Origin: Escherichia coli 042
GTDB taxonomy: Bacteria; Pseudomonadota; Gammaproteobacteria; Enterobacterales; Enterobacteriaceae
Assembly (NCBI RefSeq): GCF_000027125.1
Contig: NC_017627.1
DNA length: 64,000 nt
Reading direction: 5' to 3' (one strand)
Shown: one piece after another, positions 56,349 through 56,901 of the stretch
How the letters are laid out: every line of letters starts with the position of its first letter
Numbering within the stretch: position 1 is the stretch's first letter
Program-made: the position numbers and the translations under genes
The notes under the pieces: model-generated
Seen by the model: only the letters and a program-made list of their open reading frames with translations
Told to the model about the DNA's origin: nothing
The model's database searches: none

Positions 56349-56648
56349 TCAAAGAATGAATCGGGGATTCTGACGCTGGCCTACAACCGCCAGGATATTG
56401 ACACGACGGGCCTTATCATTCACTTCATAAAGTACATGCTGCCCAAGTAAGCTAATACGGCGAACCCCTTCGCCATAGCGTTCATCTGTTTCATACAGCC
56501 TGGGGTAATCTGCCAGACGATCGGTTGCAGTGATCAGACGCTCTGTCACGTTCCTTGCATCCCAAAGAGATGCATTCTCGGCCAGATATTCAAACAACGC
56601 CGTTATATCCTCAATCGCACCTGGTCGCCATTCTATTTCATAACTCAT
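56349..56648 (-). CDS. ParE/RelE-family type II toxin
   Basis: 99 aa; overlaps upstream antitoxin ORF by 11 bp. Confidence 0.75.
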   Translation of the reverse strand: MSYEIEWRPGAIEDITALFEYLAENASLWDARNVTERLITATDRLADYPRLYETDERYGEGVRRISLLGQHVLYEVNDKARRVNILAVVGQRQNPRFIL

Positions 56649-56901
56649 TGCGCAGTTCCTGATAACGTCCCTGTAGTTGCTGGCGCAGTTGCACGGAACT
56701 CATTCCCGGCCGCTTATCGGCGCGAGCAGCGGCAACTTTCGCTCGGATCTGTTCGTCGTATTCCGCCCGTGCCAGTTCTTCATTAGCGAGGCGTTGCAAT
56801 AGTGCAGACTTGTCTGTACTGCCTTCTGGAAAAATACGAGGCAGGCTTTCGGCCAGCTCGCGCAGGAAATTGGCGTTTTCGTAATGTGTGGTGCTATTCA
56901 T
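56638..56901 (-). CDS. Cognate antitoxin (ParD-like)
   Basis: 87-aa ORF immediately upstream and overlapping the toxin gene. Confidence 0.6.
   Translation of the reverse strand: MNSTTHYENANFLRELAESLPRIFPEGSTDKSALLQRLANEELARAEYDEQIRAKVAAARADKRPGMSSVQLRQQLQGRYQELRNEL

Follow-up and report, generated by a model that had tools for sequence, protein, structure and literature searches.

A 64,000-nucleotide stretch of Escherichia coli 042 DNA (contig NC_017627.1; all of it is meant by 'the window' below) carries on its minus strand, at 56349-56901, two small genes that probably form a functional two-gene type II toxin-antitoxin (TA) system of the ParE family (PaaA2-ParE2 branch), carried within an incompatibility group FII (IncFII) replicon block. 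The gene read first, at 56638..56901, starts with ATG and encodes an antitoxin of 87 residues, and the second, at 56349..56648 and likewise with an ATG start, encodes a 99-residue ParE-type toxin of the RelE/ParE superfamily. RefSeq names the toxin 'type II toxin-antitoxin system RelE/ParE family toxin' (WP_000119542) and the antitoxin 'hypothetical protein' or 'plasmid stabilization protein', the allele WP_001089474 being near-identical to the 042 copy. The generic layout of type II TA systems, two small adjacent co-oriented genes, overlapping and with the antitoxin first, is that found here. The open reading frames (ORFs) have 11 bp in common, 56638..56648 on the minus strand (ATGAGTTATGA; from the ORF table and the sequence), and at their junction, CTGCGCAATGAGTTATGA, the ATG of the toxin is embedded in the final codons of the antitoxin gene and is preceded, at about 8 nucleotides, by AGGA, a motif resembling a Shine-Dalgarno sequence. 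In all six other plasmid contexts compared (L004, L006, L007, L009, L013 and L016) the 11-bp overlap is identical, and the overlap suggests translational coupling, which from the sequence is probable. The antitoxin itself has the Shine-Dalgarno sequence GGGGGAG at 56908..56914 (minus strand, read from the sequence), 6 nucleotides 5′ of its ATG.

A preliminary description of this DNA, made from its letters, had called the pair a ParE/RelE-like toxin overlapped over 11 bp by an upstream cognate antitoxin, in a classical arrangement. The overlap and the order are as it gave them; the nature of the toxin is upheld by a Pfam PF05016 match above cut-off and by superposition of an AlphaFold2 (AF2) model on solved ParE toxins, and that of its partner by homology to PaaA2 over the C-terminal 40 residues. 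The RelE/ParE fold, on which the toxin assignment had been made to hang, is present, with target-normalised template modelling scores (TMt) of 0.8-0.87 to solved ParE toxins. 'Classical' suits the gene order and does not suit the antitoxin, which has neither a ribbon-helix-helix (RHH) nor a helix-turn-helix (HTH) domain and for which no operator or canonical promoter was found. All told, the pair adds an uncharacterised member to a familiar class, that of ordinary addiction modules of plasmids, and has some unusual details: it would be distinguished by PaaA2-type neutralisation without PaaR, by an invariant extra N-terminal helix, by having no detectable operator or DNA-binding domain, and by its seat on the remains of a displaced TA system.

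Are these real genes, as opposed to chance ORFs? They are, because there is a Pfam match, hundreds of homologues, a low ratio of non-synonymous to synonymous substitution rates (dN/dS) and a conserved overlap. The protein database homologues number 310 for the toxin and 352 for the antitoxin. Against the six diverged plasmid homologues the proportion of changed non-synonymous sites (pN) is 0.07-0.24 and that of synonymous sites (pS) 0.56-0.9, i.e., the latter are saturated, and for the pairs where dS could be estimated dN/dS is 0.07-0.13; sequence comparison thus indicates strong purifying selection on the two genes. From one IncF sub-lineage to another the toxin has 5-6 synonymous and 3-4 non-synonymous codon changes (dN/dS roughly 0.2) and the antitoxin one of each. 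The intact pair is in 246 of 5426 complete E. coli genomes (~4.5%), at 258 plasmid and 5 chromosomal places, and in PLSDB it is found in 340 plasmids by DNA search and in 772 by translated search, 448 of the latter being from Klebsiella and 480 mobilizable. The translated search gave plasmid copies of the toxin at 100% identity, and some 190 plasmids have the two ORFs intact, at 95% identity or more. The carriers include IncF virulence and resistance plasmids and hundreds of small plasmids of Klebsiella, Citrobacter and Salmonella.

Toxin fold, antitoxin and known relatives

In family searches the toxin matches Pfam ParE_toxin (PF05016) with an E value of 8.1e-13 and 49.2 bits, the cut-off being 23, and phrog_2455 with E=4.6e-15; its match to NCBIfam RelE_StbE is weak and under the cut-off (E=0.018). 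From the sequences in the Protein Data Bank (PDB) the single toxin sequence retrieved Caulobacter ParE1 alone (E=0.04), and the toxin family profile was uninformative there, with a best E of about 1. A search by fold was needed because these searches against solved structures were weak. The AF2 model made for it was of one chain, antitoxin then a 30-residue Gly/Ser linker then toxin, with a paired alignment of 22 rows; its mean predicted local distance difference test score (pLDDT) was 82 and its predicted TM score (pTM) 0.72, with pLDDT of 90-97 in the toxin part. There the toxin is laid out beta-alpha-alpha-beta-beta-beta, that is, a strand, a helical hairpin and a three-stranded sheet. When the toxin model was searched with Foldseek against the PDB, all 15 matches with E<=1e-3 were ParE-type toxins (TMt 0.69-0.87), the ParE-type matches being PfiT, O157 ParE2, Mesorhizobium ParE, Mycobacterium tuberculosis ParE1, PrpT, Caulobacter ParE1 and Vibrio cholerae ParE2. 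To ParE2 of E. coli O157 (5czf/5cw7) the target-normalised score is 0.81-0.87 (5czf_D, 0.87), at 24% identity and a root-mean-square deviation (rmsd) of 2.2 Å, and most matches to RelE, HigB and YoeB rank lower, with TMt of about 0.4-0.8 and, mostly, a larger rmsd of 3-9 Å. Since the best Foldseek matches are all ParE and most of those to RelE, HigB and YoeB are lower, the modelling assigns to the toxin a RelE/ParE fold on the ParE side of the superfamily.

The antitoxin sequence on its own finds PaaA2 (PDB 3zbe) with E=0.004, and a profile of the 44-sequence antitoxin family aligns its positions 46-85 with the helices of PaaA2 that bind ParE2 (E=1.3e-5). Pfam PaaA2 (PF21217) gives 18.7 bits, under its cut-off of 27, and is listed for several members of the family. 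By this sequence evidence homology to the part of PaaA2 that binds ParE2 covers the C-terminal 40 residues, and the protein divides into a PaaA2-like toxin-binding region, residues ~46-86, and a conserved helical hairpin, residues 1-45. AF2 places helices at 3-23, 28-61 and 69-86. Residues 51-80 rise from a pLDDT of 68-85 when the antitoxin is modelled alone to 95-96 in the fused model, which is consistent with folding on binding, and modelling and homology together support binding of antitoxin to toxin. The N-terminal hairpin is equally confident when modelled alone (pLDDT 85-94) and is therefore probably independent of the toxin. It includes the most conserved part of the protein, the N-terminal helix motif THYENANFLRELAExLP, invariant or nearly so across the 44 sequences, and the first 25 codons are extra constrained, with a pN of 0.02-0.09 against the six diverged homologues. 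No DNA-binding family or fold (RHH, HTH, AbrB or Phd) was found in the antitoxin with Pfam, NCBIfam, profile and Foldseek searches, and the hairpin gave fold matches to generic helical hairpins alone, e.g., Rop variants, at E>0.5. An RHH or other DNA-binding N-terminal domain was considered and not found: in the AF2 model the chain is helical from residue 3 with no N-terminal strand, and there is no family match. Most likely the hairpin would serve as an oligomerisation module or as a stability element (degron). An exhaustive profile search yielded 79 clusters at 50% identity, comprising full-length forms with the N-terminal helix and short forms of 56-70 residues without it, the latter resembling the 63-residue PaaA2. 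Apparent 'alternative N-terminal domains' in distant relatives looked on inspection mostly like gene calls that were frame-shifted or chimeric, and no argument here rests on them.

Classical ParE toxins are gyrase poisons, and their ParD antitoxins have an N-terminal ribbon-helix-helix that dimerises and binds the operator. With such ParD-ParE systems (RK2; Caulobacter ParDE1, 3KXE; V. cholerae ParDE2, 7R5A; M. tuberculosis ParDE1, 8C24) the 042 pair shares the toxin fold (TMt 0.76-0.83) and the antitoxin-first order, whereas the N-terminus of its antitoxin is predicted to be helix, with no beta-strand and no RHH match. The likeness extends further with PaaR2-PaaA2-ParE2 of the E. coli O157:H7 prophage CP-933P (PDB 5CW7/5CZF, 3ZBE), where ParE2 is the closest solved toxin by identity, the order is again antitoxin first, and the antitoxin, to which ours is homologous, also has no recognisable DNA-binding domain. 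However, no paaR-type (cI-like) gene is present here or in the six other contexts, the 042 antitoxin has 87 residues as against 63 with a nearly invariant N-terminal helix (3-23) that is absent from PaaA2, the pair is plasmid-borne and not in a prophage immunity region, and sequence identity is low. ParE2 co-localises with the nucleoid and induces the SOS response, though its target is unproven; PaaA2 has no DNA-binding domain and is degraded by ClpAP and ClpXP; and paaA2-parE2 stabilises an unstable mini-F plasmid (PMC8630535).

YacAB, or ParDE-I, of IncI1 and IncF plasmids also has a ParE-superfamily toxin with the antitoxin upstream, and occupies the same slot by the IncFII oriR flank, where yacA-yacB is found in pECOS88. 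ParDE-I stabilises plasmids and induces SOS, and antibiotic and heat tolerance have been reported for it (Kamruzzaman and Iredell 2019, PMC6614396). The forward cloning primer of that study matches perfectly at 57167-57186, in the conserved oriR flank; of the five other primers for ParDE-I (pJIE512b) none matches the TA region with up to 3 mismatches, the sole other match being that of ParD-R at 43739, with 3 mismatches. The translated search with the 042 toxin did not retrieve the IncI1 and Salmonella plasmids that carry ParDE-I, and YacA is described as RHH/COG3905-like, in contrast to the all-helical 042 antitoxin. Identity with YacAB/ParDE-I is ruled out, given that the flanking primer alone matches and that yacAB holds the slot in other plasmids. 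Comparison of the sequences places the module in the PaaA2-ParE2 branch, and not in the classical ParD-ParE branch or with YacAB/ParDE-I.

The upstream remnant and transcription of the pair

Immediately 5′ of the antitoxin, at 56921..57075 on the minus strand, is the remnant of a gene for an antitoxin of the HTH_3/XRE type, a pseudogene of the C-terminal ~50 codons with an in-frame stop (RefSeq has it as a pseudogene at 56921-57058), whose stop codon is 19 nucleotides before the antitoxin ATG. It has 78.5% nucleotide identity to an intact gene in another plasmid (p3_STEC346, L003), and by BLASTP 64% identity (E=1e-22) to the last 53 residues of a 93-residue HTH_3 protein. In L003 that protein is encoded behind its partner, a toxin matching Pfam Gp49, and their module fills the slot of the 042 pair; compared with L003, the window is missing the gene for this toxin, the promoter region and ~40 codons from the N-terminal end of the HTH gene. 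No intact copy of the remnant gene at more than ~80% nucleotide identity was found in PLSDB. This Gp49/HigB-like plus XRE-HTH module resembles the 042 pair in its slot, and the C-terminal third of its antitoxin survives upstream of the pair, but its toxin comes first, its components (PF05973 and HTH_3) are unrelated to those of the pair, and it is not part of it. The upstream HTH sequence was considered as a PaaR-like third component, which is ruled out by its truncation, its internal stop and its origin in a Gp49/XRE module, i.e., as a HigA-like antitoxin. In the six other contexts the 5′ neighbours are, variously, rop, a rep gene with a small ORF, an HTH_35 gene at a distance of 258 bp, a 74-residue ORF and a divergent gene, and as they differ the module has no conserved third component.

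The same oriR-proximal slot is held by PemIK in R100-like plasmids, by YacAB in those of ColV type and by Gp49/XRE in others, and it looks like a hot spot of TA turnover. The slot comparison was of ~56340-57200 of the window with L003, L018, L019 and L020; PemIK there sits behind a CPBP/tir gene, and L020 has yacA annotated at the slot without yacB.

From what, then, is the pair transcribed? In a relaxed scan the sequence TTGGTG-18 nt-TATACT, with 8 of 12 matches, emerged as a hypothetical promoter, P1, at 57081..57110 on the minus strand, within a 45-bp segment that joins the IncFII backbone and the HTH remnant. A weaker and equally hypothetical candidate on that strand, P2, with the extended -10 sequence TGaAACAAT at 57002..57010, is inside the remnant and overlaps its in-frame stop; its sequence is also in the diverged block of L005 (CP077216.1). 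In three small-plasmid homologues (L004, L009 and L016) there is an extended -10-like element, TGCTAMACT (TGCTA(C/A)ACT), some 35-45 nucleotides 5′ of the antitoxin ATG, directly after the rop stop codon in L016, and it may be the native promoter of the module. Among the seven upstream regions there is no shared motif beyond that of shuffled controls. Nucleotide homology between the diverged copies starts exactly at the antitoxin ATG, and a cassette boundary there was entertained; it is ruled out, the homology starting at that point because synonymous sites are saturated. As the antitoxin is without RHH or HTH and there is no intact third regulator, classical autoregulation at an operator is probably not what controls expression; the evidence does not fit it, and fits weak constitutive transcription from a promoter of foreign origin. 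In the 042 plasmid such a promoter, a weak one, would probably be located at the wreck of the displaced HigBA-like module or inside it.

A more far-reaching proposal, possible though doubtful, is that the 87-residue antitoxin is the full-length, two-component form of PaaA, that its N-terminal hairpin, with no RHH or HTH and no fold match in the PDB, is a new oligomerisation or regulatory module which the prophage PaaA2 lost on becoming dependent on PaaR2, and that the IncFII copy lives on a makeshift promoter in a HigBA-like wreck. If this were true, serial replacement of addiction modules, PemIK, YacAB, Gp49/XRE and PaaA-ParE, would be documented at one oriR-proximal slot.

Proposed action and rival explanations

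Placement in the PaaA2-ParE2 branch leads to the prediction of an SOS-inducing toxicity directed at the nucleoid or gyrase, an antitoxin labile to Clp proteases and no classical autoregulation. Toxicity, target, antitoxin lability and stabilisation are argued here by analogy with PaaA2-ParE2 (PMC8630535) and with ParE systems (PMC6614396). A labile antitoxin would wrap its two C-terminal helices around the toxin and neutralise it; on plasmid loss the antitoxin would be cleared by proteases (for PaaA2 these are ClpAP and ClpXP); and the freed ParE-type toxin would attack the nucleoid, the poisoning of DNA gyrase being the most probable route. The cells would then induce SOS, form filaments and cease to grow, and plasmid-free segregants would thereby be removed. 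The module would so add to killing by hok/sok and to ParMRC partition.

Several findings weigh against a probable PaaA2-ParE2-like addiction module, and they are best taken together with the explanations that would be served by them. The fused-chain AF2 model is a stand-in for true prediction of the complex, and literature searches by the RefSeq accessions, and for PaaA2 with IncF, gave nothing relevant. That the target of ParE2, the closest characterised toxin, is unproven weakens the gyrase step. Might the toxin of the same TA system instead be a ribosome-dependent mRNA endonuclease of RelE type, arresting translation and not poisoning gyrase? The catalytic set of RelE is K52, K54, R61, R81 and Y87. 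In the toxin R63/R64 and G90-Q91-R92 are invariant in the family, and in an alignment to E. coli RelE made by eye, with no tool, R63, R64 and R92 align with RelE K54 and R81, R64 and R92 lying near them, so that RelE-like chemistry would be compatible with the toxin sequence taken alone; PF05016 spans both RelE and ParE, there is the weak RelE_StbE match (E=0.018), and RelE structures appear in Foldseek at E of 1e-3 to 1e-2. Yet in that same alignment RelE Y87 and R61 seem not to be conserved in the family, which has H, Y or N at position 71 and, where RelE has its catalytic Y87, a variable tail after P95; an alignment shows the RR motif in Caulobacter ParE1 as well; the structural ranking is that given above; and the antitoxin that goes with this toxin is a homologue of PaaA2, which partners a ParE. 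A RelE-type activity is accordingly considered unlikely.

There is also the question of whether the pair does anything in its present position. It could be a relic, silent or in decay, that was joined to what is left of another TA system, has lost its own promoter and persists only by hitch-hiking with the replicon. The standard scan detected no canonical promoter on the minus strand from oriR to the antitoxin, no inverted repeats or operator are upstream of the antitoxin in the window, the TGCTAMACT element is absent from it, and homology to the HigA-like remnant reaches to ~10 nucleotides from the antitoxin ATG. Further, in L005, at ~2230-2800, the same block is present with 88-90% nucleotide identity and the antitoxin is pseudogenised by two stop codons, from which it follows that the module can decay. 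However, both ORFs are intact in the ~190 plasmids already mentioned, the toxin retains a dN/dS of roughly 0.2 between IncF sub-lineages, a good Shine-Dalgarno sequence is kept, there are the two weak promoter candidates, one of them conserved in L005, and an intact toxin under no selection would be expected to vanish quickly; a relic is quite unlikely. Still less probable, and indeed improbable, is a module that is active while its selected role is to compete with IncF plasmids of the same cell that have other TA systems in this slot, to confer tolerance of stress or antibiotics, or to defend against phage by abortive infection. For such a role there are the alternation of YacAB, PemIK, Gp49/XRE and the 042 pair at one slot, the presence of hok and parMRC on the plasmid already, and the antibiotic and heat tolerance reported for ParDE-I (PMC6614396); but there was no match to PADLOC defence models, and spread next to replication genes on many small multicopy and low-copy plasmids fits maintenance, and paaA2-parE2 stabilises mini-F (PMC8630535). 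A functional PaaA2-ParE2-type module within the IncFII replicon block is the explanation that we consider probable.

As such the pair would be a natural two-component comparator for a question raised by PaaA2, how a TA system is regulated when its antitoxin binds no DNA. Four TA families alternating at one slot also bear on plasmid competition, on typing and on curing strategies.

Replicon context and neighbouring features

The pair is ~0.75 kb from the IncFII oriR. Minus-strand repA occupies 57971-58840; oriR has its DnaA box, TTATCCACA, at 57787-57795 and, after it, AT-rich DNA at ~57640-57700, and Rfam places the CopA RNA at 58913-59002. In an Rfam scan of 55-60 kb CopA was the one hit apart from a sub-threshold PK-repZ that overlaps it at 58947-58998, and there was none in the TA region. 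RepA4 ORFs lie between oriR and the pair, as annotated in a near-identical plasmid. The preliminary description had put the pair between cargo and replication origin, on a plasmid with hok and parMRC, and both statements hold: eitABCD and an immunity gene are on one side and oriR on the other, and within the window are hok at ~37.4 kb (minus strand) and parM at 50432-51394.

Does the pair travel with the replicon or with the cargo? Among IncF sub-lineages with three different downstream cargos, blastn homology ends 11-12 bp past the toxin stop; against L021, L022, L023 and L005 the end of the conserved block, repA-oriR-remnant-TA, falls at 56337..56348 (no strand assigned). As the block ends just past the toxin, the pair travels with the replicon and not with the cargo. 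That cargo, on the plus strand at 51.6-55.6 kb, is eitABCD, annotated in near-identical plasmids as putative iron/siderophore ABC transport, and 5′ of it are insertion sequence (IS) and HTH fragments and parM/parR. At 55715-55990, on the minus strand, is an orphan immunity gene of colicin/pyocin type (PF01320, E=1e-30), with no bacteriocin gene adjacent. It is ~360 bp downstream of the TA pair and on the same strand, with no convincing terminator between them; 3′ of the toxin no convincing terminator was found, and on the minus strand the standard promoter and terminator scan gave nothing apart from a weak backbone hairpin at 57195-57181.

Some smaller observations concern the sequences around the pair and its relatives. 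An 86-residue ORF at 57008-57268 (minus strand) is chimeric, starting in the IncFII backbone and running through the 45-bp junction into the HTH remnant, and so overlapping P1; its start region is annotated in L003 as a 46-residue 'hypothetical protein', and the chimera is probably meaningless. In L005 one segment is replaced by a perfect palindrome, CTGCAATAATGCAGCAC/GTGCTGCATTATTGCAA, and the L005 toxin aligns over its full length with 92% amino-acid identity, a seemingly complete toxin frame without antitoxin being unexpected. A 38-nucleotide sequence occurs as a direct repeat at 56162-56199 and 57335-57372, with 89% identity and a spacing of 1173 bp, and so brackets the HTH remnant and the TA pair; the repeat is itself a hairpin (GTAAGCG...CGCTTAC). 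Its upstream copy is part of the IncFII backbone, in the RepA4 region, and its downstream copy is found in the eit-carrying lineage only (the window, L001, L002 and L008). Recombination between two IncFII replicons may have left the two copies as a scar.

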